A DNA stretch of 64,000 nucleotides, from NCBI GenBank assembly GCA_965205865.1, contig CBDBHR010000017.1, forward strand, positions 32,776 to 96,775, written 5' to 3'. The DNA comes from a bacterium (GTDB taxonomy: Bacteria > SAR324 > NAC60-12). This document shows, piece by piece, positions 1 to 16,061 of the stretch. Made by a program: the position numbers and the translations under genes. The notes beneath the pieces were generated by a model that saw nothing but the letters and a program-made list of their open reading frames with translations, was not told where the DNA came from and made no database searches. Position 1 is the first letter of the stretch. Each line of letters begins with the position of its first letter.

Positions 1-3000
1 AGATTTGATACTCCCCTTCGGCTTTCAGAAAAAGTGCTTGATGGCGTAAGGAAAACTGAGGAAATTGTTCCAATTCGTCAAAAAAGCTGATCGCCTCTTT
101 GTAGTTTTTCTTTTCCCATTCCTGCTGACCGATTTGGTAGTAAAGCGAAGCAATTCTTGCTTTCGCTTCTCCTTGATACTGGCTATCCTCCGTTTTAAGA
201 TAATTCTGATAAAGCAGCACGATGGTTTCCATTTGTACTCGATTATGCTGCGACTCGGGTTGACTCATTAAGATTTGATATTCCCCTTCGGCTTTGAGAA
301 AAAGGGCCGGATGGCGTAAGGGGAATTGAGGGAATTGCTCCAGTTCATCAAAAAATGCGATGGCCTCTTTGTAGTTTTGCTGTTCCCATTCATTCTGACC
401 GAGTTGATAATACAGGGAAGCAATCCTCGCTTTGGCATCATCTTGGAACTGGACATCCTCGGTTTTGAGATAATTCTGATAAAGCTGCGCAATGGCTTCC
501 AGGCGAGCTCGTTCGTGTTGTGATTCAGACTGACTGAGTAATATTTGATATTCCCCTTCGGCTTTGAGAAAGAGGGTGGGATGACGTAAGGGGAACTGAG
601 GAAATTGTTCCAGTTTGTCAAAATACGTGATGGCTTCTTTGTAGTTTTGTTTTTCCCATTCCTGCTGACCGAGTTGATAGTAAAGGGAAGCAATCCTCGC
701 TTTGGCATCGTCTTGATACTGACTGTCCTGGGTCTCCAAATAGTTTTGGTAGAGCTTTACAATGGCTTCCGGACGAACTCGTTTATACCGGGACTCAGGC
801 TGGCTCTGTAAGATTTGATACTCCCCTTCGGCTTTCAGAAAAAGTGTCTGATGGCGTAAGGGGAACTGAGGAAATTGTTCCAATTCGTCAAAAAATGCGA
901 TGGCCTCTTTGTAGTTTTGCTGTTCCCATTCATTCTGACCAAGTTGGTAGTAAAGGGAAGCGATTCTTGCTTTCGCTTCTCCTTGATACTGGCTATCTTC
1001 CGTTTTAAGATAATTCTGATAAAGCAGCACGATGGTTTCCATTTGTACTCGATTATGCTGTGACTCGGGTTGACTCAGTAAGATTTGATATTCCCCTTCG
1101 GCTTTCAGAAAAAGGGTCGGATGGCGTAAGGAGAATTGAGGGAATTGCTCCAGTTCATCAAAAAATGCGATGGCCTCTTTGTAGTTTTGCTGTTCCCATT
1201 CCTGCTGACCGAGTTGATAGTAAAGGGAAGCAATCCTCGCTTTGGCATCATCTTGGTACTGGATGTCCTCGGTTTCGAGATAATTCTGATAAAGCTGCGC
1301 AATGGCTTCCAGGCGAGTTCGTTCGTGCTGCGACTTTGGTAGGTTTCGCAGGATTTGATACTCCCCTTCGGCTTTGAGAAAGAGGGTGGGGTGACGTAAG
1401 GGGAACTGAGGGAATTGTTCCAGTTTGTCGAAAAACGCGATGGCTTCTTTATAGTTTTGTTTTTCCCATTCCTGCTGACCGATTTGATAGTAAAGCGAAG
1501 CAATCCTCGAATTGGCATCGTCTTGATACTGACCATCCTGGGTCTCCAAATAGTTTTGGTAGAGTTGTACAATGGCTTCCTGACGAGTTCGATTGCGCTG
1601 CGACTCAGGCTGACTGAGTAAGATTTGATATCCTCCTTCAGCTATGAGAAAGAGGGCGGAGTGGCGTAAAGGAAATAAAGGGAATTGCTTGAGTTCGTTA
1701 AAAAAAACGATCGCTTCCTTATAGTTTTGTTTTTCCCATTCACTTTGACCGAGCTGATAATACAGAGAAGCGATCCTTCCTCTGGCATCGCTTCGGAATT
1801 GGTTGTCCTCGGTTTTCAAATAGTTTTGATAGAGCTGAATGATGGCTTCCATGCGCACTCGATTATTCTGAAACTCAGGCTGGTTGAGCAAAATTTTATA
1901 CTCTCCTTCAGCTTTGAGAAAGAGGGTGGATTGGCGCAGAGGGAATTGAGGGAATTGCTCGAGTTCGTCAAAATAAGCAATCGCTTCTCTATAGTTTTGC
2001 TTTTCCCATTCATTCTGCCCGAGTTGGTAGTAAAGGGAAGCAATCCTCGCTCTGGCATCGTTTCGGTATTGGCTGTCCTGAGTTTCCAAATAGTTTTGGT
2101 AGATCTGCGCAAGGGCTTCCAAATGAGCTCGTTCGTGCTCTGATTTCGGTTGGCTGAGCATGATCTGATATTCCCCTTCGGCCTTGAGAAAGAGGGCAGG
2201 GTGGCGTAGCGGGAATTGAGGGAATTGTTCCAGTTTGTCAAAAAACGCGATGGCTTCTTTGTAGTTTTGTTTTTCCCATTCCTGCTGACCGATTTGGTAG
2301 TAAAGCGAAGCAATCCTCGAATTTGCATCGCCTTGATATTGACTGTCCTGGGTCTCCAAATAGTTTTGGTAGAGTTGTACAATGGTTTCCAGGTGAACTC
2401 GTTTTTGCTCGGATTCAGGTTGGCTGAGCAAGATTTGATACTCTCCTTCGGCTTTGAGAAAGAGAGTGGGGTGGCGCAGAGGGAATTGGGGAAACTGCTC
2501 GAGTTCGTCAAAATAAGCAATCGCTTCTTTGTAGTTTTGCTTTTCCCATTCATTCTGGCCGAGTTGATAGTAAAGGGAAGCAACCCTCGCTCCGGCATCG
2601 CTTTTGTATTGGTTGTCCCCGGTTTTGAGATAGTTCTGATAGAGTTGAATGATGCCTTCCAGGCGAACCCGATTGCGTTGAGGTTCAGGCTGGCTGAGCA
2701 AGATCTGATATTCCCCTTCGGCCTTGAGAAAAAGAGTGGTGTGGCGCAGAGGGAATTGGGGAAAATGCTCGAGTTCGTCAAAATAAGCAATCGCTTCTTT
2801 ATAGTTTTGCTTTTCCCATTCATTCTGGCCAATTTGATAGTAAAGGGAAGCAATCCTCGCTCTGGCATCGTTACGGTATTGGCTGTCCCGAGTCTCCAAA
2901 TAGTTTTGGTAGAGTCTCACGATGGCTTCCAGGCGAACCCGATTGTGTTGAGGCTCAGGCTGGCTGAGCAAGATTTGATACTCCCCTTCGGCTTTGAGGA

Positions 3001-6000
3001 AGAGGGTGGGATGACGTAAGGGGAATTGAGGGAATTGTTCCAATTCGTCAAAAAAGCTGATCGCCTCTTTGTAGTTTTTCTTTTCCCATTCCTGCTGACC
3101 GATTTGGTAGTAAAGCGAAGCAATTCTTGCTTTCGCTTCTCCTTGATACTGGCTATCCTCCGTTTTAAGATAATTCTGATAAAGCAGCACGATGGTTTCC
3201 ATTTGTACTCGATTATGCTGCGACTCGGGTTGACTCATTAAGATTTGATATTCCCCTTCGGCTTTGAGAAAAAGGGTCGGATGGCGTAAGGGGAATTGAG
3301 GGAATTGCTCCAGTTCATCAAAAAATGCGATGGCCTCTTTGTAATTTTGCTTTTTCCATTCTTGCTGACCGAGTTGATAATACAGGGAAGCAATCCTCGC
3401 TTTGGCATCATCTTGGAACTGGACATCCTCGGTTTTGAGATAATTCCGATAAAGCTGCGCAATGGCTTCCAGGCGAGCTCGTTCGTGTTGTGATTCAGGC
3501 TGACCGAGTAAAATTTGATATTCCCCTTCGGCTTTGAGAAAAAGGGTTGGGTGACGTAAGGGGAATTGAGGAAATTGTTCCAGTTTGTCAAAAAACGCGA
3601 CGGCTTCTTTGTAGTTTTGTTTTTCCCATTCCTGTTGACCGATTTGATAGTACAGCGAAGCAATCCTCGAATTGGCATCGTCTTGATACTGACTGTCCTG
3701 GGTCTCCAAATAGTTTTGGTAGAGCTGTACAATGGCTTCCGGACGAACTGGTTTATACCGGGACTCAGGCTGGCTCTGTAAGATTTGATACTCCCCTTCG
3801 GCTTTCAGAAAAAGTGCTTGATGGCGTAAGGAAAACTGAGGAAATTGTTCCAATTCGTCAAAAAAGCTGATCGCCTCTTTGTAGTTTTTCTTTTCCCATT
3901 CCTGCTGACCGATTTGGTAGTAAAGCGAAGCAATTCTTGCTTTCGCTTCTCCTTGATACTGGCTATCCTCCGTTTTAAGATAATTCTGATAAAGCAGCAC
4001 GATGGTTTCCATTTGTACTCGATTATGCTGCGACTCGGGTTGACTCATTAAGATTTGATATTCCCCTTCGGCTTTGAGAAAAAGGGCCGGATGGCGTAAG
4101 GGGAATTGAGGGAATTGCTCCAGTTCATCAAAAAATGCGATGGCCTCTTTGTAGTTTTGCTGTTCCCATTCATTCTGACCGAGTTGATAATACAGGGAAG
4201 CAATCCTCGCTTTGGCATCATCTTGGAACTGGACATCCTCGGTTTTGAGATAATTCTGATAAAGCTGCGCAATGGCTTCCAGGCGAGCTCGTTCGTGTTG
4301 TGATTCAGACTGACTGAGTAATATTTGATATTCCCCTTCGGCTTTGAGAAAGAGGGTGGGATGACGTAAGGGGAACTGAGGAAATTGTTCCAGTTTGTCA
4401 AAATACGTGATGGCTTCTTTGTAGTTTTGTTTTTCCCATTCCTGCTGACCGAGTTGATAGTAAAGGGAAGCAATCCTCGCTTTGGCATCGTCTTGATACT
4501 GACTGTCCTGGGTCTCCAAATAGTTTTGGTAGAGCTTTACAATGGCTTCCGGACGAACTCGTTTATACCGGGACTCAGGCTGGCTCTGTAAGATTTGATA
4601 CTCCCCTTCGGCTTTCAGAAAAAGTGTCTGATGGCGTAAGGGGAACTGAGGAAATTGTTCCAATTCGTCAAAAAATGCGATGGCCTCTTTGTAGTTTTGC
4701 TGTTCCCATTCATTCTGACCAAGTTGGTAGTAAAGGGAAGCGATTCTTGCTTTCGCTTCTCCTTGATACTGGCTATCTTCCGTTTTAAGATAATTCTGAT
4801 AAAGCAGCACGATGGTTTCCATTTGTACTCGATTATGCTGTGACTCGGGTTGACTCAGTAAGATTTGATATTCCCCTTCGGCTTTCAGAAAAAGGGTCGG
4901 ATGGCGTAAGGAGAATTGAGGGAATTGCTCCAGTTCATCAAAAAATGCGATGGCCTCTTTGTAGTTTTGCTGTTCCCATTCCTGCTGACCGAGTTGATAG
5001 TAAAGGGAAGCAATCCTCGCTTTGGCATCATCTTGGTACTGGATGTCCTCGGTTTCGAGATAATTCTGATAAAGCTGCGCAATGGCTTCCAGGCGAGTTC
5101 GTTCGTGCTGCGACTTTGGTAGGTTTCGCAGGATTTGATACTCCCCTTCGGCTTTGAGAAAGAGGGTGGGGTGACGTAAGGGGAACTGAGGGAATTGTTC
5201 CAGTTTGTCGAAAAACGCGATGGCTTCTTTATAGTTTTGTTTTTCCCATTCCTGCTGACCGATTTGATAGTAAAGCGAAGCAATCCTCGAATTGGCATCG
5301 TCTTGATACTGACCATCCTGGGTCTCCAAATAGTTTTGGTAGAGTTGTACAATGGCTTCCTGACGAGTTCGATTGCGCTGCGACTCAGGCTGACTGAGTA
5401 AGATTTGATATCCTCCTTCAGCTATGAGAAAGAGGGCGGAGTGGCGTAAAGGAAATAAAGGGAATTGCTTGAGTTCGTTAAAAAAAACGATCGCTTCCTT
5501 ATAGTTTTGTTTTTCCCATTCACTTTGACCGAGCTGATAATACAGAGAAGCGATCCTTCCTCTGGCATCGCTTCGGAATTGGTTGTCCTCGGTTTTCAAA
5601 TAGTTTTGATAGAGCTGAATGATGGCTTCCATGCGCACTCGATTATTCTGAAACTCAGGCTGGTTGAGCAAAATTTTATACTCTCCTTCAGCTTTGAGAA
5701 AGAGGGTGGATTGGCGCAGAGGGAATTGAGGGAATTGCTCGAGTTCGTCAAAATAAGCAATCGCTTCTCTATAGTTTTGCTTTTCCCATTCATTCTGCCC
5801 GAGTTGGTAGTAAAGGGAAGCAATCCTCGCTCTGGCATCGTTTCGGTATTGGCTGTCCTGAGTTTCCAAATAGTTTTGGTAGATCTGCGCAAGGGCTTCC
5901 AAATGAGCTCGTTCGTGCTCTGATTTCGGTTGGCTGAGCATGATCTGATATTCCCCTTCGGCCTTGAGAAAGAGGGCAGGGTGGCGTAGCGGGAATTGAG

Positions 6001-9000
6001 GGAATTGTTCCAGTTTGTCAAAAAACGCGATGGCTTCTTTGTAGTTTTGTTTTTCCCATTCCTGCTGACCGATTTGGTAGTAAAGCGAAGCAATCCTCGA
6101 ATTTGCATCGCCTTGATATTGACTGTCCTGGGTCTCCAAATAGTTTTGGTAGAGTTGTACAATGGTTTCCAGGTGAACTCGTTTTTGCTCGGATTCAGGT
6201 TGGCTGAGCAAGATTTGATACTCTCCTTCGGCTTTGAGAAAGAGAGTGGGGTGGCGCAGAGGGAATTGGGGAAACTGCTCGAGTTCGTCAAAATAAGCAA
6301 TCGCTTCTTTGTAGTTTTGCTTTTCCCATTCATTCTGGCCGAGTTGATAGTAAAGGGAAGCAACCCTCGCTCCGGCATCGCTTTTGTATTGGTTGTCCCC
6401 GGTTTTGAGATAGTTCTGATAGAGTTGAATGATGCCTTCCAGGCGAACCCGATTGCGTTGAGGTTCAGGCTGGCTGAGCAAGATCTGATATTCCCCTTCG
6501 GCCTTGAGAAAAAGAGTGGTGTGGCGCAGAGGGAATTGGGGAAAATGCTCGAGTTCGTCAAAATAAGCAATCGCTTCTTTATAGTTTTGCTTTTCCCATT
6601 CATTCTGGCCAATTTGATAGTAAAGGGAAGCAATCCTCGCTCTGGCATCGTTACGGTATTGGCTGTCCCGAGTCTCCAAATAGTTTTGGTAGAGTCTCAC
6701 GATGGCTTCCAGGCGAACCCGATTGTGTTGAGGCTCAGGCTGGCTGAGCAAGATTTGATACTCCCCTTCGGCTTTGAGGAAGAGGGTGGGATGACGTAAG
6801 GGGAATTGAGGGAATTGTTCCAGTTCATCAAAAAAAGCGATGGCCTCTTTGTAGTTTTGTTTTTCCCATTCCTGCTGACCGAGCTGATAGTAAAGCGAAG
6901 CAATCCTCGCTCTGGCATCGTTCCGGTACTGATGGTCCTGGGTCTCCAAATAGTTTTGGTAAAGCCTCACAATAGCTTCCAGGCGAGTTCGTTCGTGCTG
7001 CGACTCAGGCTGGTTGAGCAAGATTTGATACTCTCCTTCCGCTTTGAGAAAGAGAGCAGGGTGGCGCAGAGGGAATTGGGGAAATTGCTCGAGCTCGTCA
7101 AAAAAAGCAATGGCTTCCTTGTAATTTTCTTGTTCCCACTCATTCTGACCAAGTTGGTAGTAAAGAGACGCGATCCTTGCTCGGGAATCGTCTTGGTACC
7201 GATTGTCCTCGGTTTTGAGATAGTTCTGATAAAGATATATAACTTTTTCCATACCTGCCCGATCGTGCTGCGATTCAGGCTCGCTGAGCAGGATTTGATA
7301 CTCCCCTTCGGCTTTCAGAAAAAGGGTGGAATGGAGCAGGGGAAATTGGGGGAATTGCTCGAGTTCGTTAAAAAATGCGATGGCTTCTTTGTAGTTTTGC
7401 TTTTCCCACTCTTGTTGACCAAGTTGATAGTATAGCAACGCGACTCGAGATCTGGCATCATCTTGATACTGGTCGTCCTCGGTTTTGAGATAGTTCTGAT
7501 AGAGTTGAATAATGTCCTCTACGCGAACTCGTTTATTCCGGGACTCAGGTTGACTGAGCAGGATTTGATACTCCCCCTCGGCTTTCAGAAAAAGGATGGA
7601 GTGACGCAGAGGAAACTGAGGGAATTGCTCCAATTCGTCAAAAAAAGCGATGGCTTCTTCAAAGTTTTTCTCATGCCATTCATACTGCCCGAGTTGATAG
7701 TAAAGCGAAGCGACCCGGGCTTCAGCATCACTTCGGTATTGGCTACTTTCGGTTTGGAGATAGTTTAGATAGAGCTGTATGATGTTTTCTATGCGAGCTT
7801 TGTTGTGCGGGGAATCCGGCTCGCTGAGCAGGATTTGATACTCCCCTTCGGCTTTCAGAAAAAGGATGGAGATGCGTTGGGGGAACTGTGGGAATTGCTC
7901 GAGTTCGTCAAAAAAAGCAATCGCTTCTTTGTATTTTTGCTTATCCCACTCACTCAGCCCGAGCTGGTAGTAAAGCGAAGCGATCCTTGCGCTGGCATCG
8001 CTTTGATACTGGCTGTCCCCGGTTTTGAGATAGTTTTTATAAAGCTGCGCAATAGTTTCCAGGTGAGCTCGTTTTTGCTCGGATTCAGGCCGACCGAGTG
8101 AGATTTGATACTCCCCTTCGGCTTTCAGAAAAAGGGTGGGGTGGCGCAGTGGAAACTGAGGAAATTGCTCGAGTTCGTCAAAAAAAGCAATCGCTTCTTT
8201 GTAGTTTTTCTCTTCCCATTCATTCTGCCCGAGTTGGTAGAATAGTGAAGCGATCCTCGCTCTGGCATCGGTTTCGTACTTGCTGTCCTCGGTTCCCAGA
8301 TAATTTTTAAAGAGTTGTACAATGCCTTCCATGCGAACTCGATTGTGCTGCGATTTAGGCTGGTTCATCAAGATTTGGTATTCCCCTTCGGCTTTCAGAA
8401 AAAGGGCGGGGTGGCGCAGTGGAAACTGAGGAAATTGCTCGAGTTTATCAAAAAAAGTGATCGCTTCTTTGAAATTTTGCTTTTCCCATTCCTCCTGTCC
8501 GAGCTGGTAATAAAGCGAGGCGACCCTCGCCCTGGCATCGGCTTGGTACTGATCGTCCTCCGTTATGAGATAGTTCTGATAGAGCTGAATGATGGCTTCC
8601 AGGCGAACTCGTTTATGCTGCAACTCGGGCTGGGTCAGCAGGATTTGATATTCCCCTTCTGCCTTGAGAAAAAGGGTGGGGTGACGCAAGGGGAATTGAG
8701 GAAATTGTTCCAGTTCGTCAAAAAAAGCAATCGCCTCTTTGAAGTTTTGCCTTTTCCACTGCAGTTGAGCAAGTTGATAGTAAAGCAAAGCAATCCTCGC
8801 ATTGGCATCGTCCACGTACTGGCTGTCCTCGGTATTGAGATAGTTCTGATAGAGTATCACGATTGTTTCCATGCGAGCCCCTTTGTGCTGGGACTGAGGC
8901 TCGCTCAGCAGAATTTGATACTCCCCTTCGGCTTTCAGAAAAAGAGCCGGGTGGCGCAGGGGAAACTGAGGAAATTGCTCGAGTTCGTCAAAAAACGCGA

Positions 9001-12000
9001 TGGCCTCTTTGTAGTTTTGCTTGTCCCATTCAATTTGACCGAGTTGGTAGTAAAGCGAAGCGATCCTCCCTCTGGCGTCGTCTTGGTACTCGCTGTCCTC
9101 GGTATCGAGATAGTTCTGATAAAGTTGAATGATGCCTTCCAGGCGAGTTCGTTTGCGCTGGGACTCAGGCTGATTGAGCAGGATTTGATACTCCCCTTCG
9201 GCTTTCAGAAAAAGGGTGGGATGGCGCAAATGGAATTGAGGAAATTGTTCTAATTCATCAAAAAAGGCGATGGCCTCTTCGTAGTTTTGCTTGTCCCATT
9301 CAATTTGACCGAGCTGGTAGTATAGCGAAGCGATCCTCGCTCTGGCATCCCCTTCGTATCGGCTATCTCCGGTTTTGAGATAGTTCTGATAGAGCTGAAT
9401 GATGGCTTCCAGGCTAACTCGTTTGTGCTGGGTCTCGGGCTGACTCAGCAGGATTTGATATTCCCCTTCGGCTTTCAGAAAGAGTGCCGGGTGGCGTAGA
9501 TGAAAAAGAGGGAATTGCTCTAGTTCGTCAAAAAAAGCAATCGCTTCTTTGTAGTTTTGCTTTTTCCACTGCAGTTGACCAAGTTGATAGTAAAGCAAAG
9601 CAATCCTCGCATTAGCATCGTCTTCGTACTGGCTGTCCTTGGTATTGAGATAGTTCTGATAGAGTTTCACGATGGCTTCCAAATGAGCCACTTTGTGCTG
9701 GGACTGAGGCTCGCTCATCAGTATTTGATACTCCCCTTCGGCTTTCAGAAAGAGAGCCGGGTGGCGCAGGGGAAACTGAGGGAATTGCTCGAGTTCGTCA
9801 AAAAACGCGATGGCCTCTTGGTAGTTTTGCCTGTCCCATTCAATTTGACCGAGTTGGTAGTATAGCGAAGCGATCCTCGCTCTGGCGTCGTCTTGGTACT
9901 TGCTGTCCTCGGTTTTGAGATAGTTCTGATAGAGCTGAATAATGCCTTCCAGGCGAGTTCGTTTGTGCTGGGACTCAGGCTGATTGAGCAGGATTTGATA
10001 CTCCCCTTCGGCTTTCAGAAAAATGGTGGGATGGCGCAACGGGAATTGGGGAAATTGTTCCAATTCATCAAAAAACGCGATGGCCTCTTCGTAGTTTTGC
10101 TTGTCCCATTCAAATTGACCGAGTTGGTAGTAAAGCGAAGCGATCCTCGCTCTGGCATCGTTCCGGAACTGCTTGTCCTTTGTCTCCAAATAGTTTTGGT
10201 AGAGTCGCACGATGGTTTCCAAGCGCACTCGTGACTGCTGGGTCTGAGGCTGGCTGAGCAAGATCTGATACTCTCCTTCGGCTTTCAGAAAAAGGGTGGG
10301 GTGACGCAAAGGGAATTGTGGGAATTGCTCCAGCTTGTCGAAAAAAGCGATCGCATCTTTGTAGTTTTGCTTCTCCCATTCAATTTGACCGATCTGGTAG
10401 TAAAGCAATGCGATCCTCGCTCTGGCGTCGTCTTGGTATTGGTCGTCTTGAGTCTCTAAATAGTTTTGGTAGAGTAGCACGATGGCTTCCAAACGAGTCC
10501 GTTTCTGTTGGGATTCGGGCAGGCCGAACAAGATTTGATATTCTCCTTCTGCTTTGAGAAAGAGAGTGGGGTGACGCAGGGGGAATTGGGGGAATTGCTC
10601 CAATTTATCAAAAAAACCGATAGCTTCCTTGTAATTTTGCTTTTTCCATTCATTCTGACCAAGCCGATAATAAAGCACGGCAATCCTTGCATTGGCATCA
10701 CTTTGATACTGGATGTTCCCGGTTTTAAGATAATTCTGAAAGAGAAGTACGATGGCTTCCAGGCGAACTCGTTTGTGCTCAGATTCTGGCAGGCTGAGCA
10801 GGATCTGATACTCCCCTTCGGCTTTGAGAAAGAGAGCCGGGTGGCGTAAAGGGAATCCCGGAAATTGTTCCAACTCATCAAAAAAAGTGATGGCTTCCCT
10901 GTAATTATGCCGTTGCCACTCCTGCTGACCCAGTTGATAATAAAGCAAAGCAACCCTCGCCTTAGCATCGTCTTGGTACTGATTGTCCTTGGTTTTCAAA
11001 TAGTTCTGATAGAGTTGGACAATAGCTTCCAGGCGAGCTCGTTTGTGCTGTGATTTAGGCCGCTTGAGCAAGATTTGATACTCGCCTTCGGCTCTGAGAA
11101 AAAGAGTCGGGTGGCGGTGGGGAAATTGAGGAAATTGCTCGAGTTTCTCAAAAAATGCGATGGCCTCTTTGTAGTTTTGCTTTCCCCATTCATTCTGACC
11201 GAGTTGATAGTAAAGCAAAGCGATCCTCGCTCTGGCGTCGTCTTGGTACTCGCTGTCCTCGGTTTTGAGATAGTTCTGATAGAGCTGTACAATGGCTTCC
11301 AGGCGAGATCTTTTTTGCCGTAACTCAGCCAGACTGAGCATGATTTGATACTCTCCTTCGGCTTTGAGAAAGAGTGCCGGATAGCGTAATGGAAATTGAG
11401 GAAATTGCTCCAATTTCTCAAAAAAAGTAATGGCCTCTTTGTAATTTTGCTTTTTCCATTCAATTTGACCGAGTTGGTAGTAAAGCGATGCAATCCTCGC
11501 GTTTGCTTCTCTTTGGTACTGGTCGTCCTGGGTCTCCAAGTAGTTTTGATAGAGTTGCGCGATGGTTTCCATTTCAACTCGACTATGCCGGGACTCAGGC
11601 CGACTGAGAAAGATTTGATACTTCCCTTCGGCTTTGAGAAAAAGGGTGGGTTGACGCAGAGGGAAATGAGGGAATTGCTCGAGTTCGTCAAAAAAAACGA
11701 TGGCCTCTTTGTAGTTTTGCTTCTCCCATTCCATTTGACCGAGTTGGTAATAAAGCGAAGCAATCCTCGCTTTGGCATAGTCTTGGTACTGGCTGTCCTC
11801 GGTTTTGAGATAGTTCTGATAGAGCTGTACAATAGCTTCCATACGAGCTCCTTTTTGCTGCAATTCAAGCTGACTGAACAGGATTTGATACTCGCCTTCG
11901 GCTTTAAGAAAGAGGGTGGAGTGACGCAGGGGAAACTTTGGGAATTGCTCCAATTTTTCAAATAAAGCGATCGCTTCTTCGTAGTTTTGCTTTTCCCACT

Positions 12001-12840
12001 CCCTTTGACCAAGCTGGTAATAAAGCGAAGCAATTCTCGCTTTAGCCTCGTCTTGGTACTGACGGTCCTTGGTTTTGAGGTAATTTTGATAGAGCAGAAT
12101 GATGGTTTCCATGAGAGCCCCTTTGTGCTGGGACTCAGGTACGCGCAGCAAGATTAGATATTCCCCTTCGGCTTTGAGAAACAAAGCGGGATTCCTTAGA
12201 GGGAACCGCGGGAATTGCTCGAGTTCGTCAAAAAAAGCGATCGCTTCTTTATAGTTTTGCTGTTTCCACTCTTTCTGCCCGAGCTGATAGTAAAGCGTGG
12301 CAATCCTCGCTTTACTATCTTCCAGGTACTGGTTGTCCGTGGTTTTAAGATAATTCTGAAAGAGAAGTACGATGGCTTCCAGACGAGCCTTATTGTGCTG
12401 CGACTCAGGTTGGCTGAGCAATATTTGATACTCCCCTTCGGCTTTGAGAAAAAGAGTGGGATGGCGTAAGGGAAATTGAGGGAATTGCTCGAGTTCGTCA
12501 AAAAAAGCGATTGCTTTTTTGTAATTTTTTCGTTTCCACTCACTCTGGCCGAGTTGGTAGTAAAGCGTTGCGATCCTCTCATTAGCAATTTTTTGATATT
12601 GGTTGTCCCCGGTTTTGAGGTAGTTTTGATAGAGCCCTGCGATAGCTTCCATACGAGCCCCTTTTTTGCGGGTCTCAGACTCACCCAGCAATATTTGATA
12701 CTCCCCTTCAGCTTTGAGAAAGAGAGTGGAATCGCGCAGGGGGAACTGAGGGAATTGCTCCAATTTGTCAAAAAAAGCAATCGCTTCTTTGAAGTTTTTT
12801 TGCCCCCACTCATTTAAGGCGAGTTGGTAATAAATTTTGG
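1..12840. repeat. Coding tandem repeat, 270-bp unit, about 47.5 copies, with 810-bp and 3,780-bp higher-order periods
   Basis: A gatttgata-type anchor recurs every 270 bp from position 2 to 12692. 1-3042 matches 3781-6822 and gives identical shadow ORFs at offset 3780. Confidence 0.97.
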
Positions 12841-13540
12841 CCTGACGGTCTTCGTCTTGAATATGGTTTACATATTCCTGCAACCATTTTTTCGCTTTCT
12901 GAAATTCTTGTTGATGCTGATAGGCCAATCCCAACAGATGGAGCCACTCAATTTTCATCTCCTTGGTCAGGTGTTCTTTGGTTGTTATTTTGGAAAGTGT
13001 ATTACTGGCTTTCTGATAAAGAGGAATCGCTTCTGAAGATTGATTTTGACGGGATAATTCCGCTGCATAAAAAAAAGAGTTTCCTAACCAATAGAGGGCA
13101 ATTTCCCGATTACGACTTTCTGGAAATTTTTTTGTGAACTCCCCTAAAATTGAAATGCTTCGCTCGTATTGCAACAAGCTTGCTCTCAATAGACCTTCCC
13201 GAAACATCGCATCTTCAGTCCATTGACCCGTTGGATATTCTTGACGATAATTTTGGTATTCGTCCGCAACCCCTGACTTGTCTTCCGAACTCAATTCTCC
13301 GGACCGTATTTTCAAGAAAATAACTGCCTCTCGAAATTGACCCTCAGGAAATTTATTGAGGTATTCTTCTGCTTCCTCTTGAGCAAGTTCATGAAATCCG
13401 TCCTTGAAAAATCCCTGAATTATTTGAAACTGTTCTTCCTCAGTTAAAGAAGCCAATGTATTGATAGGAAAAAATAACCCCATGAGGAGTAGTAAGAAGA
13501 TTATGAAATCCACAAAATAATATTTATTTAAAGAGGCCAT
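1..13540 (-). CDS. Giant secreted TPR/alpha-solenoid repeat protein (partial, at least 4,513 aa, runs off the left end)
   Basis: Manual translation from ATG 13540 gives MASLNKYYFVDFIIFLLLLMGLFFPINTLA-SLTEEEQF (signal-peptide-like), then TPR-like segments (YLNKFPEGQFREAVIFL, YRQEYPTGQWTEDAMF), then 90-aa repeats. The same frame reads LFLKAEGEYQI at positions 34-2. The ORF track lists no terminated ORF in this frame, consistent with no internal stop. Confidence 0.93.
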   Translation of the reverse strand, partial: MASLNKYYFVDFIIFLLLLMGLFFPINTLASLTEEEQFQIIQGFFKDGFHELAQEEAEEYLNKFPEGQFREAVIFLKIRSGELSSEDKSGVADEYQNYRQEYPTGQWTEDAMFREGLLRASLLQYERSISILGEFTKKFPESRNREIALYWLGNSFFYAAELSRQNQSSEAIPLYQKASNTLSKITTKEHLTKEMKIEWLHLLGLAYQHQQEFQKAKKWLQEYVNHIQDEDRQAKIYYQLALNEWGQKNFKEAIAFFDKLEQFPQFPLRDSTLFLKAEGEYQILLGESETRKKGARMEAIAGLYQNYLKTGDNQYQKIANERIATLYYQLGQSEWKRKNYKKAIAFFDELEQFPQFPLRHPTLFLKAEGEYQILLSQPESQHNKARLEAIVLLFQNYLKTTDNQYLEDSKARIATLYYQLGQKEWKQQNYKEAIAFFDELEQFPRFPLRNPALFLKAEGEYLILLRVPESQHKGALMETIILLYQNYLKTKDRQYQDEAKARIASLYYQLGQREWEKQNYEEAIALFEKLEQFPKFPLRHSTLFLKAEGEYQILFSQLELQQKGARMEAIVQLYQNYLKTEDSQYQDYAKARIASLYYQLGQMEWEKQNYKEAIVFFDELEQFPHFPLRQPTLFLKAEGKYQIFLSRPESRHSRVEMETIAQLYQNYLETQDDQYQREANARIASLYYQLGQIEWKKQNYKEAITFFEKLEQFPQFPLRYPALFLKAEGEYQIMLSLAELRQKRSRLEAIVQLYQNYLKTEDSEYQDDARARIALLYYQLGQNEWGKQNYKEAIAFFEKLEQFPQFPHRHPTLFLRAEGEYQILLKRPKSQHKRARLEAIVQLYQNYLKTKDNQYQDDAKARVALLYYQLGQQEWQRHNYREAITFFDELEQFPGFPLRHPALFLKAEGEYQILLSLPESEHKRVRLEAIVLLFQNYLKTGNIQYQSDANARIAVLYYRLGQNEWKKQNYKEAIGFFDKLEQFPQFPLRHPTLFLKAEGEYQILFGLPESQQKRTRLEAIVLLYQNYLETQDDQYQDDARARIALLYYQIGQIEWEKQNYKDAIAFFDKLEQFPQFPLRHPTLFLKAEGEYQILLSQPQTQQSRVRLETIVRLYQNYLETKDKQFRNDARARIASLYYQLGQFEWDKQNYEEAIAFFDELEQFPQFPLRHPTIFLKAEGEYQILLNQPESQHKRTRLEGIIQLYQNYLKTEDSKYQDDARARIASLYYQLGQIEWDRQNYQEAIAFFDELEQFPQFPLRHPALFLKAEGEYQILMSEPQSQHKVAHLEAIVKLYQNYLNTKDSQYEDDANARIALLYYQLGQLQWKKQNYKEAIAFFDELEQFPLFHLRHPALFLKAEGEYQILLSQPETQHKRVSLEAIIQLYQNYLKTGDSRYEGDARARIASLYYQLGQIEWDKQNYEEAIAFFDELEQFPQFHLRHPTLFLKAEGEYQILLNQPESQRKRTRLEGIIQLYQNYLDTEDSEYQDDARGRIASLYYQLGQIEWDKQNYKEAIAFFDELEQFPQFPLRHPALFLKAEGEYQILLSEPQSQHKGARMETIVILYQNYLNTEDSQYVDDANARIALLYYQLAQLQWKRQNFKEAIAFFDELEQFPQFPLRHPTLFLKAEGEYQILLTQPELQHKRVRLEAIIQLYQNYLITEDDQYQADARARVASLYYQLGQEEWEKQNFKEAITFFDKLEQFPQFPLRHPALFLKAEGEYQILMNQPKSQHNRVRMEGIVQLFKNYLGTEDSKYETDARARIASLFYQLGQNEWEEKNYKEAIAFFDELEQFPQFPLRHPTLFLKAEGEYQISLGRPESEQKRAHLETIAQLYKNYLKTGDSQYQSDASARIASLYYQLGLSEWDKQKYKEAIAFFDELEQFPQFPQRISILFLKAEGEYQILLSEPDSPHNKARIENIIQLYLNYLQTESSQYRSDAEARVASLYYQLGQYEWHEKNFEEAIAFFDELEQFPQFPLRHSILFLKAEGEYQILLSQPESRNKRVRVEDIIQLYQNYLKTEDDQYQDDARSRVALLYYQLGQQEWEKQNYKEAIAFFNELEQFPQFPLLHSTLFLKAEGEYQILLSEPESQHDRAGMEKVIYLYQNYLKTEDNRYQDDSRARIASLYYQLGQNEWEQENYKEAIAFFDELEQFPQFPLRHPALFLKAEGEYQILLNQPESQHERTRLEAIVRLYQNYLETQDHQYRNDARARIASLYYQLGQQEWEKQNYKEAIAFFDELEQFPQFPLRHPTLFLKAEGEYQILLSQPEPQHNRVRLEAIVRLYQNYLETRDSQYRNDARARIASLYYQIGQNEWEKQNYKEAIAYFDELEHFPQFPLRHTTLFLKAEGEYQILLSQPEPQRNRVRLEGIIQLYQNYLKTGDNQYKSDAGARVASLYYQLGQNEWEKQNYKEAIAYFDELEQFPQFPLRHPTLFLKAEGEYQILLSQPESEQKRVHLETIVQLYQNYLETQDSQYQGDANSRIASLYYQIGQQEWEKQNYKEAIAFFDKLEQFPQFPLRHPALFLKAEGEYQIMLSQPKSEHERAHLEALAQIYQNYLETQDSQYRNDARARIASLYYQLGQNEWEKQNYREAIAYFDELEQFPQFPLRQSTLFLKAEGEYKILLNQPEFQNNRVRMEAIIQLYQNYLKTEDNQFRSDARGRIASLYYQLGQSEWEKQNYKEAIVFFNELKQFPLFPLRHSALFLIAEGGYQILLSQPESQRNRTRQEAIVQLYQNYLETQDGQYQDDANSRIASLYYQIGQQEWEKQNYKEAIAFFDKLEQFPQFPLRHPTLFLKAEGEYQILRNLPKSQHERTRLEAIAQLYQNYLETEDIQYQDDAKARIASLYYQLGQQEWEQQNYKEAIAFFDELEQFPQFSLRHPTLFLKAEGEYQILLSQPESQHNRVQMETIVLLYQNYLKTEDSQYQGEAKARIASLYYQLGQNEWEQQNYKEAIAFFDELEQFPQFPLRHQTLFLKAEGEYQILQSQPESRYKRVRPEAIVKLYQNYLETQDSQYQDDAKARIASLYYQLGQQEWEKQNYKEAITYFDKLEQFPQFPLRHPTLFLKAEGEYQILLSQSESQHERARLEAIAQLYQNYLKTEDVQFQDDAKARIASLYYQLGQNEWEQQNYKEAIAFFDELEQFPQFPLRHPALFLKAEGEYQILMSQPESQHNRVQMETIVLLYQNYLKTEDSQYQGEAKARIASLYYQIGQQEWEKKNYKEAISFFDELEQFPQFSLRHQALFLKAEGEYQILQSQPESRYKPVRPEAIVQLYQNYLETQDSQYQDDANSRIASLYYQIGQQEWEKQNYKEAVAFFDKLEQFPQFPLRHPTLFLKAEGEYQILLGQPESQHERARLEAIAQLYRNYLKTEDVQFQDDAKARIASLYYQLGQQEWKKQNYKEAIAFFDELEQFPQFPLRHPTLFLKAEGEYQILMSQPESQHNRVQMETIVLLYQNYLKTEDSQYQGEAKARIASLYYQIGQQEWEKKNYKEAISFFDELEQFPQFPLRHPTLFLKAEGEYQILLSQPEPQHNRVRLEAIVRLYQNYLETRDSQYRNDARARIASLYYQIGQNEWEKQNYKEAIAYFDELEHFPQFPLRHTTLFLKAEGEYQILLSQPEPQRNRVRLEGIIQLYQNYLKTGDNQYKSDAGARVASLYYQLGQNEWEKQNYKEAIAYFDELEQFPQFPLRHPTLFLKAEGEYQILLSQPESEQKRVHLETIVQLYQNYLETQDSQYQGDANSRIASLYYQIGQQEWEKQNYKEAIAFFDKLEQFPQFPLRHPALFLKAEGEYQIMLSQPKSEHERAHLEALAQIYQNYLETQDSQYRNDARARIASLYYQLGQNEWEKQNYREAIAYFDELEQFPQFPLRQSTLFLKAEGEYKILLNQPEFQNNRVRMEAIIQLYQNYLKTEDNQFRSDARGRIASLYYQLGQSEWEKQNYKEAIVFFNELKQFPLFPLRHSALFLIAEGGYQILLSQPESQRNRTRQEAIVQLYQNYLETQDGQYQDDANSRIASLYYQIGQQEWEKQNYKEAIAFFDKLEQFPQFPLRHPTLFLKAEGEYQILRNLPKSQHERTRLEAIAQLYQNYLETEDIQYQDDAKARIASLYYQLGQQEWEQQNYKEAIAFFDELEQFPQFSLRHPTLFLKAEGEYQILLSQPESQHNRVQMETIVLLYQNYLKTEDSQYQGEAKARIASLYYQLGQNEWEQQNYKEAIAFFDELEQFPQFPLRHQTLFLKAEGEYQILQSQPESRYKRVRPEAIVKLYQNYLETQDSQYQDDAKARIASLYYQLGQQEWEKQNYKEAITYFDKLEQFPQFPLRHPTLFLKAEGEYQILLSQSESQHERARLEAIAQLYQNYLKTEDVQFQDDAKARIASLYYQLGQNEWEQQNYKEAIAFFDELEQFPQFPLRHPALFLKAEGEYQILMSQPESQHNRVQMETIVLLYQNYLKTEDSQYQGEAKARIASLYYQIGQQEWEKKNYKEAISFFDELEQFPQFSLRHQALFLKAEGEYQI

Positions 13541-13566
13541 TTTTAATCTTTTCTGAGATAGTGGTT

Positions 13567-13881
13567 TCAGTGAAATATTTTGATTTGTTGAATTACATTT
13601 TCCCAGCAAGCGCTGTTGATGTTGTCAACACGAACGACCTTATTTCGGTTGTTTACGCCATGCTGGATGGAAATATTGGAATGGGGAACTTTTAGCGCTT
13701 TGGCGAGAAAAGAAATGCGCTGTTTGTTTGCCTGTCTTCCTTTGGGGGCGGCAGTAAGACTTAGTTTGATTTTATTGTCAAAGACACGTCCCCATGACAC
13801 TTTGGAAGCGCGTGGTTGGACATATAAGTAGAGAGTGAGTTGGTTCCCTTCTAATACAAAACCGTTTTCTGCAGACATCAT
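13567..13881 (-). CDS. yggU: YggU/DUF167 family protein
   Basis: LYVQPRASK...KIKLSLTAAP...ANKQ...LAKALKVPHSNISIQHG pattern; ATG at 13881. Confidence 0.8.
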   Translation of the reverse strand: MMSAENGFVLEGNQLTLYLYVQPRASKVSWGRVFDNKIKLSLTAAPKGRQANKQRISFLAKALKVPHSNISIQHGVNNRNKVVRVDNINSACWENVIQQIKIFH

Positions 13882-14371
13882 TGCACCTGAAATATGAACC
13901 AATCAATTATTCGGAATTTCCCCTTTGCAATATCTTTGCATGAACTTGACCACTTTGCTGCTTACAAAAAATTTTGTATTGAAAAGCGCTATGAATCAAG
14001 AATCTTCAAGTTTCAGCACTTCTTTCTGGCCGGAGATGTCATCAAGTCTCATTGGAAGGCGTGAATTTATAATTCGACGGATTTCATTCCTTTCTTCAAA
14101 ATATTCCTCGTTTTGTTCTGCGAATTAGGCTCCCTTTTTCAACTTCATAATTGTATGGCTTGATTGGCTGGTCAGGTTTTTTAAACAGTAGTCACTGATT
14201 TGCTGAAAAAGGTTCTCTACAGGTGAACTGGATGATCGTGAGTCAATTGTTGCAAAGGCTAAAAAAATAATGAATACGTTCTCTGTTGAACGATCATACA
14301 AACTTCTGTAGACTAATAAGATAATTTACAACAATTCAAAAAAATAGTCATCCGGAATTAGAGATAATTGT

Positions 14372-15007
14372 ATGATGGCACAAACGTGTATTAAGGTTTG
14401 TGGGCTGACTAACCGTGAGCAGGTCAAAGCCTGTGTCGTATCAGGTGCGCATTGGTTGGGATTCAATTGCTATCCTCAATCCAAAAGGTATGTTTTTCCT
14501 GAAAAAATACGTGAATTGTTGAATGTTGTACCCGACAATGTGAAAACGGTTGGTGTTTTTGTCAATGAATCTTTACAAAACGTAAATCAGATTATGGAAT
14601 ACACGGGCATGCAACTCGTCCAACTGCATGGCGACGAGTCTCCTGATTATGCCAAAGCCCTCAATCATCCGTACATCCGTGCTTTCCGTGTCTCTCCCAT
14701 TTTTCAACCGAATCAGATCAGTCACTATCACTTGACCCATTTTTTACTGGATTCTTACCATCCCAATCTTTACGGAGGAACAGGCGAATCTTTCAACTGG
14801 GAAATTGCAAAAGAAACAAAAAAGTTTGGAAGATTGATCTTGGCCGGCGGTTTGCGTTCCGAAAATGTTCAAAAAGCTGTTACCACTGTTCGTCCTTTTG
14901 GAGTCGATGTCTGTAGCGGAGTTGAATCTGCACCGGGAGTGAAAGATTTGAACCGGGTCGCTACTTTTATTTCGGCGGTAAAAAAAGCAGACTGTTCCTT
15001 AATGTAG
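14372..15007 (+). CDS. trpF: Phosphoribosylanthranilate isomerase
   Basis: IKVCGLT, VGVFVNE, VQLHGDE, YGGTGESFNW, LAGGL and GVDVCSGVE motifs. Confidence 0.95.
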   Translation: MMAQTCIKVCGLTNREQVKACVVSGAHWLGFNCYPQSKRYVFPEKIRELLNVVPDNVKTVGVFVNESLQNVNQIMEYTGMQLVQLHGDESPDYAKALNHPYIRAFRVSPIFQPNQISHYHLTHFLLDSYHPNLYGGTGESFNWEIAKETKKFGRLILAGGLRSENVQKAVTTVRPFGVDVCSGVESAPGVKDLNRVATFISAVKKADCSLM

Positions 15008-15287
15008 TGGAGTCATTAGTTAATGCTTGGACGAATATCGCTTATTCTCCCGTTTCATGAGGATTAGAGGTCAAAAATAATTTTGTAGATTTTTGAGCTA
15101 TCCTGAGATCTTTCAAAATTCTCTCAATGATATGGCCATTTTGATAATTAGGAAGAGAATACGTTTGATCCCACGTAGAGTGGTTCAGTACCTCCCAAAC
15201 CATGATTCTTGTAAAATTTCTCAAAGGCGTTATCATATCGTCTTTGATTGCGGATTCCATTATATCGTATCGTGAAACGAGGTTTTT

Positions 15288-16061
15288 ATGCGAGTCATTC
15301 CAATTCTATGTTTGCAAGACAATTATGCGTATTTGATCGTTTGTGAAACTACCAATCAGGCAGGAATTGTAGATCCTTCCGAATTCAGACCCGTGTGGCA
15401 GGAAATTGAGCGTCAAAAGGTACAATTGGTGGCTATTTTGAATACGCACCACCACTGGGATCATGTAGGAGGAAATAAGAAACTGCTGCGAAGAGTCCCC
15501 GAATTGAAAGTGTATGGGCATCATTCGGATCAAGGTCGCATTCCCGGGCAGAATGAGATGTTGGAAGAAACAGACAAATTACGAATCGGGAAACTGGAAG
15601 CACGCCTCACCCACAATCCAGGACACACCACTGGGGCGATTTCCTTTTATTTCGAGGACGCGGTATTCACTGGAGATACCCTATTTGCTGCAGGCTGTGG
15701 GCGGTTGTTTGAGGGAACCCCACAAGACATGTACTCCTCCCTCAATGAAAAAATTGGAGCCCATGCTCCTGTCACAAAAGTTTATTTCGGTCATGAATAC
15801 ACAGAAAACAATCTGAAATTTGCCCAATTTTTGGAACCCGACAACGCGTGGGTTCAAAAAAAATTGAAAGAGACCCGACGCTTACGGCAAGCAGGAAAAT
15901 TCACGACCCCTTCTACCTTGGAGTCAGAATGGCAGACCAATCCATTCATGCGATGTGACAGTCCTCAAATCCGGGCTGCCGTGAAACGGTACGATCCTCA
16001 GAACGACTTGACCCCCGTCTCGGTTTTACGGGTCGTTCGGCAGCTTAAAGATGATTTTTGA
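15288..16061 (+). CDS. gloB: Hydroxyacylglutathione hydrolase (glyoxalase II)
   Basis: THHHWDHVGG, PGHT, FTGDTLFAAGCGRLFEG, GHEYT and NPFMR motifs. Confidence 0.95.
   Translation: MRVIPILCLQDNYAYLIVCETTNQAGIVDPSEFRPVWQEIERQKVQLVAILNTHHHWDHVGGNKKLLRRVPELKVYGHHSDQGRIPGQNEMLEETDKLRIGKLEARLTHNPGHTTGAISFYFEDAVFTGDTLFAAGCGRLFEGTPQDMYSSLNEKIGAHAPVTKVYFGHEYTENNLKFAQFLEPDNAWVQKKLKETRRLRQAGKFTTPSTLESEWQTNPFMRCDSPQIRAAVKRYDPQNDLTPVSVLRVVRQLKDDF

Follow-up and report, generated by a model that had tools for sequence, protein, structure and literature searches.

Most giant repeat proteins of bacteria are either multi-enzyme synthetases or surface adhesins rich in beta structure. The TPR (tetratricopeptide repeat) proteins BamD and CpoB consist of ~240-260 amino acid residues (aa) and contain 3-5 TPRs; the former is a lipoprotein and the latter is encoded in the tol-pal operon. 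Among the TPR proteins of the gliding machinery of Myxococcus xanthus, GltD (AgmU) is a 1,191-aa protein with a signal peptide and GltI (AgmK) is a 4,132-aa protein without a signal peptide, according to Table 1 of PMC3169522. The gene described here begins in a 64,000-nucleotide (nt) stretch of DNA of a SAR324 bacterium, which was analysed as a whole and is termed the window (G000:C17:32776-96775). Its source genome, G000, is 4.74 Mb in 30 contigs and is 92% complete. The gene encodes a protein of 6,544 aa, termed the giant protein, which, as judged from its TPR motifs and from a structure model, is an exceptionally long and regular TPR solenoid whose expansion can be traced. Literature searches on giant TPR genes and repeat expansion returned no account of the giant protein, nor of any exported array of TPRs comparable to it.

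The minus-strand frame 2..13609 of the window is open for 4,536 codons without a stop and leaves the window at its edge, when open reading frames (ORFs) are listed with open ends and translated. When this frame is read across the contig, its stop is located 6,094 bases left of the window, and the gene is C17:26681-46315. An earlier note on this DNA had reported an open minus-strand frame from ATG 13540 past position 1, and this frame is indeed open throughout the window. The note had estimated the size of the product to be more than 4,500 aa with ~47 units. The protein is giant as claimed, but this estimate is too small, because the full gene encodes 62 units and 6,544 aa when it starts at ATG 13540, or 6,567 aa when it starts at the upstream in-frame codon TTG 13609. 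The leftward extension of the contig, which the note had proposed, yields not only the stop but also a 771-aa C-terminal module preceding it, and no in-frame stop is found in the 6,544 codons of the full translation. The gene is a real, intact gene for a giant repeat protein. The note had called it hidden and absent from the ORF track; the probable reason is that frames running off the end of the source are left out of ORF lists by default. Genes of this kind can be missed or split by gene callers and by ORF lists made from windows, and the copies of several relatives are deposited in pieces. From its N-terminus onwards, the protein consists of a predicted signal peptide, an N-terminal TPR module of 160 aa, a tandem array of 62 units of 90 aa each and a 771-aa non-repeat C-terminal TPR module. 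The computed mass and isoelectric point of the mature protein are ~779 kDa and 5.2, respectively. The parts of the gene within the window are as follows.

1..13540, minus strand: in-window part (codons 1-4513) of the giant TPR gene; frame without a stop, the rest read from the contig
13448..13540, minus strand: predicted Sec signal peptide (aa 1-31); sequence read by eye
12962..13447, minus strand: non-repeat N-terminal TPR module (aa 32-193); Pfam TPR_6 at 40.2 bits and YfiO at 37.3 bits, both above their cut-offs
1..12961, minus strand: array of 90-aa (270-bp) double-TPR units, with units 1-47 and part of unit 48 in the window; Tandem Repeats Finder, spacing and AlphaFold2

The array is highly regular. 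Tandem Repeats Finder detects a single array at 1-12798 with a period of 270 bp, 47.4 copies, 78% matches and 0% indels. The AEG.Y motif occurs 62 times in the whole protein, and all 61 spacings between these motifs are exactly 90 aa, in agreement with the unit length given in the note. The unit quoted there represents unit 47, but its coordinates are off by one base (272-541 rather than 271-541). The mean identity between units is 74% at the aa level and 76% at the nt level. The array contains no cysteine and has a net charge of ~-3.3 per unit; the whole protein contains two cysteines, both apparently in the C-terminal module by reading.

Four units score above the cut-offs of several Pfam TPR models: TPR_2 (45.9 bits, cut-off 27), TPR_14 (44.6, cut-off 23.5), TPR_12 (44.9, cut-off 30.1) and TPR_8 (42.2, cut-off 25.7). 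The TPR_6 score of the N-terminal module likewise exceeds its cut-off of 26.3 bits, and the C-terminal module is matched by TPR_12 (50.9 bits) and TPR_2 (46.9 bits). However, the Pfam TPR models cover only ~26-34 aa of each unit, and scans with Pfam and NCBIfam models return no named family that spans the whole 90-aa unit. An AlphaFold2 model of four units, built from a 23-row alignment of 4-unit blocks, has a predicted local distance difference test (pLDDT) score of 93.4 and a predicted template modelling (pTM) score of 0.82, and contains 16 helices; the four of each unit are located at residues 11-26, 33-53, 57-69 and 76-92. A single-sequence model of residues 1-470 agrees with this four-helix unit. 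In the model, helices 2 and 3 form one hairpin, which corresponds to a canonical 34-aa TPR, and helix 4 forms a second, longer hairpin with helix 1 of the following unit. In structural searches, TPR superhelices (designed CTPR, O-GlcNAc transferase (OGT) and SPY) and BamD are matched at Z scores of 10-13, a range that is common for helical repeats. A search of the ESM Atlas returns generic TPR clusters only. When two copies of the 4-unit block are modelled together, the self-association score is 0.00 (mark 0.42), which is no evidence either way. The over-threshold TPR motifs, together with the solenoid of stacked helix pairs in the model, place the giant protein in the TPR superfamily. Thus, the structure prediction proposed in the note supports an all-alpha TPR solenoid. 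The note had described an unusual unit of no recognised family. A family covering the whole unit is indeed absent, but the repeat is not exotic, because it consists of two TPR-like hairpins, of which one is canonical.

The units differ from one another mainly at synonymous sites. For pairs of units (n=1,176), with recent duplicates left out, the median proportions of synonymous (pS) and nonsynonymous (pN) differences are 0.62 and 0.136, respectively, with a ratio of nonsynonymous to synonymous substitution (dN/dS) of ~0.12; synonymous sites are saturated in 135 of these pairs. When 49 units are aligned, 15 columns show no variation and another 29 reach a conservation of at least 90%, so that ~44 of the 90 positions, many of them polar, are conserved. 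Q46, Q49, N56, R76 and E85 of the unit are among these conserved polar residues. The invariant residues are written with several different codons. Near-saturation of the synonymous sites, together with conservation of these residues across codons, indicates that the units are old and have been kept by selection at the protein level. The array is under purifying selection at the protein level.

The gene is also found in other genomes and in other sequencing studies. The sister-genus genome G001, which is a single-contig chromosome, contains an intact orthologue, whose length is 5,195 or 5,217 aa according to which start codon is used. This orthologue contains 47 anchor motifs, of which 45 of the 46 spacings are 90 aa, and its N- and C-termini are 63% and 74% identical to those of the giant protein, respectively. 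The 5,217-aa form is present without a name in a collection of 15 billion proteins, where its 90% cluster has 14 members, including a second, non-identical protein of 5,217 aa and several pieces that sum to similar numbers of units on single contigs. The exact G000 protein is absent from this collection. DNA contigs of two runs from two other studies (X2 and X3) cover 30 of the 30 bins of window positions 7000-16000 at an identity of at least 95%, and one contig of each run spans 12482-16000. In one study, two RNA-library runs have contigs on 13 and 15 of these 30 bins, including six places inside the array, which is a weak hint of expression; array parts that lack such contigs do not show that the gene is silent.

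Matches to the C-terminal module are found in 39 of the 41 related genomes. The full-length orthologues read from DNA consist of 1,043 aa (G006), 1,062 aa (G007), 1,064 aa (G016), 1,080 aa (G009), 1,081 aa (G008), 1,590 aa (G004) and 5,195 aa (G001), and the giant form (G000), also read from DNA, of 6,544 aa; the orthologue P0002 consists of 1,274 aa. Over the C-terminal 771 aa, the end-to-end identity to the giant protein is 74% for G001, 50% for P0002 and 42-45% for G016, G004, G007 and G009, and the identity of this module to those of G006 and G008 is 29-32%. By sequence comparison, with collinear end modules and a signal-peptide-like start, the giant protein is the expanded form of an exported TPR protein of ~1,060 aa, which is conserved in this bacterial family as well as in its sister family. 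The protein is not an orphan, because orthologues are present in these 39 relatives, and the description of a giant all-alpha TPR solenoid in the note holds. A word-based search with the C-terminal module gives only 2 matches, as its list is filled by 7,999 TPR-rich candidates, and is uninformative on the breadth of the family.

The 90-aa unit is rare. When the unit profile is searched against 1.84 billion representative proteins, as the note had advised, 78 proteins match at E<=1e-3, 10 at E<=1e-10 and 4 at E<=1e-30; the top matches are all relatives of the giant gene. In a whole-genome search, the 90-aa unit is found in no other frame of G000. The unit profile detects 61 near-full units in G000, 46 in G001, 6 in G004, 2 in P0002 and none in G006, G007, G008, G009 and G016. 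In the last five short forms, the profile is matched by halves of the unit only, with positions 34-88 preceding positions 6-48; together these amount to about one unit in circularly permuted form. A stretch of ~90 aa, present in about one copy in the short forms, was probably amplified by tandem and multi-unit duplication. Unit-by-unit orthology between G000 and G001 is not demonstrable, since the best matches across species (74-82% nt identity) are no better than the background within the array, and independent expansion and concerted evolution are accordingly not separated by this comparison. The graded series of 0, 2, 6, 46 and 61 near-full units represents a natural experiment on the lengthening of a solenoid by multi-unit duplication and on the benefit of its length.

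Other members of the family are enlarged in a different manner. The orthologues at loci L028 (G005), L031 (G012) and L032 (G014) reach 2,126-2,278 aa by repetition of parts of the C-terminal module, corresponding to query residues ~482-595 or ~370-765, instead of the 90-aa unit; they represent expansions that arose independently within this family. Expansion of different C-terminal parts in other genera indicates that this protein family is prone to internal expansion, and the array of genus g1 is the extreme of it. A near-neutral, runaway expansion by slippage or unequal crossover in a tolerant protein, giving an array without a function of its own, would be consistent with this proneness, as seen in the enlargement of other parts of the same protein to ~2,130-2,280 aa, and with the difference in the number of near-full units between related species (46 versus 61). 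However, such an expansion is hardly expected to keep dN/dS at ~0.12 with near-saturated synonymous sites, to maintain the unit length so strictly (61 of 61 and 45 of 46 spacings) or to conserve many polar residues, and this explanation is considered very unlikely.

The copy number itself depends on one large duplicate. A tract of 3,361 bp is present twice, 3,780 bp (14 units) apart, with 5 mismatches between the copies and with 3,225 bp exact.

3475..6835, minus strand: near-exact 3,361-bp duplicate, copy 1, approximately units 24-36; self-comparison at the 14-unit offset
1..3055, minus strand: near-exact 3,361-bp duplicate, copy 2, approximately units 38-50, reaching 305 bases past the left edge of the window; self-comparison

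A recent duplication, gene conversion or an assembly error could each account for this repeat, and up to 14 units are affected. If it is an assembly error, the gene is still real, but ~14 of its 62 units are derived from a false duplication and the true array has ~48 units in a protein of ~5,300 aa. Recurrence of so long a tract with so few mismatches at exactly 14 units, the 47 units of the sister array and the absence of the exact protein from the protein collection are all compatible with such an error. However, the duplicate keeps the frame and carries mismatches at its edges. In addition, the tract of identity, at 3,361 bp, does not span the full offset of 3,780 bp, which fits gene conversion or an older recombination better than a simple error of tandem collapse or expansion. 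The array also contains smaller multi-unit duplicates: units three positions apart share up to 96.7% nt identity, and the value for units 12 and 15 is 94.8%. Because of these smaller duplicates elsewhere in the array, block duplication appears to be its normal mode of growth. An inflated copy number is therefore thought to be unlikely, though less so than a neutral origin of the array.

The N-terminus of the giant protein is MASLNKYYFVDFIIFLLLLMGLFFPINTLA/SL. It contains an n-region (MASLNKYY), a hydrophobic core of 15 residues and then PINTLA|S, as expected for a signal peptide; the hydrophobic N-terminus ending in NTLA-S that the note had pointed out is thus borne out. In all eight orthologues read from DNA, with G000 included, a positive stretch is followed by a hydrophobic core, small residues and then a conserved E..QFQ.IQ motif. 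There is no lipobox and no cysteine within the first 31 residues, and Pfam and NCBIfam scans of the N-terminus, the units and the C-terminus detect no beta-barrel, RTX, sorting or enzymatic domain. It is predicted from this sequence pattern that the protein is cleaved after NTLA, with SLTEEEQ as the first residues of the mature form, and located in the periplasm. The protein could instead be cytoplasmic or anchored to the inner membrane, with the hydrophobic N-terminus serving as an uncleaved anchor or not being used, because export of a 779-kDa protein is demanding and the position of the start codon is uncertain. GltI, as it is described in Table 1 of PMC3169522, is a precedent for a giant cytoplasmic TPR protein. 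However, the positive n-region, the core of ~15 residues and the small residues at -3 and -1 are kept in all eight orthologues despite their differing sequences, and the closest family matches of the giant protein, although below threshold, are to the periplasmic proteins YbgF, BamD and PorW. A location other than the periplasm is accordingly given little credence.

The neighbouring genes of the giant gene in G000 are yggU, followed by the divergent trpF, upstream and queG downstream. The gene next to it in the window is the following.

13567..13902, minus strand: DUF167/YggU gene (Pfam DUF167, 64.9 bits), upstream of the giant gene, 26 nt from its ATG

It is possible, from this spacing, that the DUF167/yggU gene and the giant gene are co-transcribed. 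If translation began at TTG 13609, the giant protein would gain 23 residues and its gene would overlap the 3' end of the DUF167 gene. In the G001 orthologue, the counterpart of ATG 13540 in the alignment is the second ATG (5,195-aa form), and the deposited G001 protein begins at an upstream ATG (5,217 aa). A gene for a DDE transposase (L001:2857-4239, G000:C17:22856-24238; DDE_Tnp_1_4, 171.5 bits) is located ~2.4 kb downstream of the stop of the giant gene, between tilS and a gene for a PNP_UDP_1 phosphorylase.

No operon around the orthologue is conserved across 20 loci, and only partial, lineage-specific neighbourhoods are found. A gene for a TPR-Amidase_3 protein follows the orthologue in G004, G007 and G016, and an S41 peptidase gene comes next after it in G004 and G007. 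At four loci of the sister family, the orthologue is followed by a small Peptidase_M50 gene, and in one genome of that family (L021) a DUF167 gene precedes it. These neighbours are a hint of the cell envelope, but none of them is conserved throughout. The TPR-amidases (L014:2776-4476 in G007, L013:8080-9777 in G004 and L012:6833-8557 in G016) contain YbgF/BamD-like TPRs at the N-terminus (residues ~57-165), before the Amidase_3 domain. Directly upstream of the short orthologues in G004, G007 (L014:8083-9810), G008, G009, G010 and G016, a highly charged protein of 576-585 aa is encoded. This ~580-aa protein has no match in Pfam, NCBIfam or the PDB, and neither G000 nor G001 yields a copy of it; stand-alone proteins of ~184-197 aa correspond to its C-terminal ~170 aa.

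Amidase_3 (PF01520) is not found in G000, at 92% completeness, or in the single-contig G001, but is present in all four of the other genera examined (G002, G005, G011 and G007). The genus with the giant array may lack amidases of the AmiA/B/C type, and the link to a peptidoglycan amidase is accordingly weaker for the giant form. A peptidoglycan link of the array, which is suggested by the neighbours in other genera only, is doubtful.

Another possibility is that the giant protein is a eukaryote-like TPR protein which an animal-associated symbiont releases to manipulate the cells of its host. Sponge symbionts are among the bacteria for which eukaryotic-like proteins of the TPR class are discussed (for example, PMC13747020), and two sequencing runs labelled 'sponge metagenome' have a word share of 0.06, from which no habitat is claimed. 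However, orthologues are present in 39 of 41 relatives, including single-contig genomes of 1.6-1.7 Mb, and Pfam and NCBIfam scans reveal no secretion signal besides Sec and no effector-type domain. The housekeeping context of the gene and the wide conservation of its orthologues argue against a dedicated host effector, which is regarded as improbable.

Conservation of the two ends, together with growth of a middle region that has a strongly conserved and largely polar surface, suggests that the array acts as a multivalent platform or spacer. According to the mechanism proposed here, the giant protein would be exported by Sec, cleaved after NTLA and folded as a continuous TPR superhelix, in which the amplified array pushes the conserved end modules apart. 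The array would represent a functional surface rather than a filler, with ~60 equivalent binding sites for a repetitive partner in the envelope, such as a polymer (peptidoglycan or polysaccharide) or many copies of one protein. A consensus-TPR superhelix has ~8 repeats per 7-nm turn. By such superhelix geometry, ~124 hairpins would form a rod of ~0.1 micrometre, with a predicted length of ~1.8 nm for each unit. This length is several times the width of the periplasm, and the protein would therefore have to lie along the envelope.

Several points weigh against this reading. The scaffold role is proposed from the architecture of the protein only, and its orthologues are all uncharacterised. The gene neighbourhood is not conserved, with housekeeping neighbours (yggU, trpF and queG) in G000, and the amidase neighbour of other genera is absent at the giant gene. 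The start codon is uncertain by ~23 codons (ATG 13540 or TTG 13609), and the signal peptide is a reading of the sequence by eye. Misassembly of the 3.36-kb near-exact duplicate could have inflated the copy number; removal of 14 units from the 62 would leave about as many as the 47 of the sister. Some members of the sister-species cluster are split, which may be due to sequencing frameshifts or may represent real pseudogenes. The RNA signal is seen at the contig level in one study, at low depth and without strand, and is not proof of transcription. Nevertheless, an elongated multivalent scaffold or spacer in the periplasm, between conserved end modules, is judged from the architecture to be somewhat more probable than all other roles together. 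Such a protein, 779 kDa in size, exported, composed nearly entirely of TPRs and under strong purifying selection, would be an unusual component of the envelope. A bolder form of this proposal is a periplasmic 'cable' of ~0.1 micrometre along the wall, in which ~60 identical grooves bind peptidoglycan or another polymer and the number of units sets a dimension of the envelope, in a genus apparently without cell-separation amidases of the Amidase_3 type. This form is quite unlikely, only a little less so than the host-directed and cytoplasmic alternatives. If it is true that the array binds a periodic polymer of the envelope, the giant protein would represent a new class of periplasmic structural element.

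Comparison with known TPR systems places the giant protein apart from each of them. The note had likened it to TPRs of the BamD and CpoB type. The resemblance is present in the TPR sequence flavour, with Pfam TPR_6 and YfiO matches, and in the predicted periplasmic location, but it is below the family thresholds. Identity as BamD is rejected, because TIGR03302 scores 40.5 bits for the N-terminus and 40.4 bits for the units against a cut-off of 81.4 bits and there is no lipobox; the true BamD of G000 is encoded elsewhere (C30:443304-443999, 140.4 bits). Identity as CpoB is likewise rejected, because TIGR02795 scores 50.3 bits against 90.1 bits, PRK10803 scores 17.2 bits against 383 bits and the giant gene is located outside a tol-pal cluster; a better YbgF/CpoB-like match of G000 (66.4 bits) is on contig C29. 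Structural matches to BamD are obtained with 5efr (Z 11.0, root-mean-square deviation (rmsd) 4.3 over 219 residues) and 3qky (Z 10.3, rmsd 5.1 over 229 residues), but these Z scores of 10-11 are tied with those of many other TPR proteins. A PDB sequence search with the N-terminal 380 aa gives one weak match to BamD (9n2d_F, E 2.4e-05). The giant protein is 25 times longer than BamD and CpoB, has no lipobox and is encoded between yggU and queG.

The proteins of ~1,060 aa of its own family (G006-G009 and G016), together with P0002 and G004, share with the giant protein the orthologous end modules, the signal peptide and unit halves or a few copies of the unit. They differ from it in having 0-6 near-full units, as compared with 61 in G000, and in their neighbours; the 580-aa gene, the TPR-amidase and the S41 peptidase that are next to several short forms are not found in G000 next to the giant gene. 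Adaptors of S41 peptidases (CtpA/Prc) of the LbcA/NlpI type are also periplasmic TPR proteins, and an S41 peptidase is encoded two genes past the orthologue in G004 and G007. LbcA is a weak fold match (7rqf, rank 46), which is no better than the matches to generic TPR proteins. However, these adaptors are lipoproteins of ~300-570 aa, whereas the giant protein has no lipobox, no S41 gene is adjacent to its gene and the S41-like matches of G000 are on other contigs only. The designed CTPR and OGT superhelices resemble the giant protein in their continuous stacking of TPR hairpins and give the best Foldseek matches (9qhb, E 3.2e-06, and 8chy); a wide structural search returns 9qhb at Z 10.2 and 1w3b at Z 10.0. 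They contain 8-16 identical 34-aa repeats, whereas the giant protein contains ~124 hairpins in a 90-aa period of two hairpins.

Domains of the glt/agl type (MotA/TolQ, ExbD and OmpA-like) are not found among the scanned neighbours of the giant gene. By the description in the accessible part of PMC3169522, GltI differs from the giant protein in having no signal peptide and is not described there as a regular tandem array, and the two are likened by description only. GltD and GltI are nevertheless very large and annotated with TPRs only; GltD is exported and is similar in size to the short orthologues, and GltI is giant (PMC3169522). Taken as analogues, GltD and GltI may represent the closest functional counterparts in print of the short and giant forms of this family.

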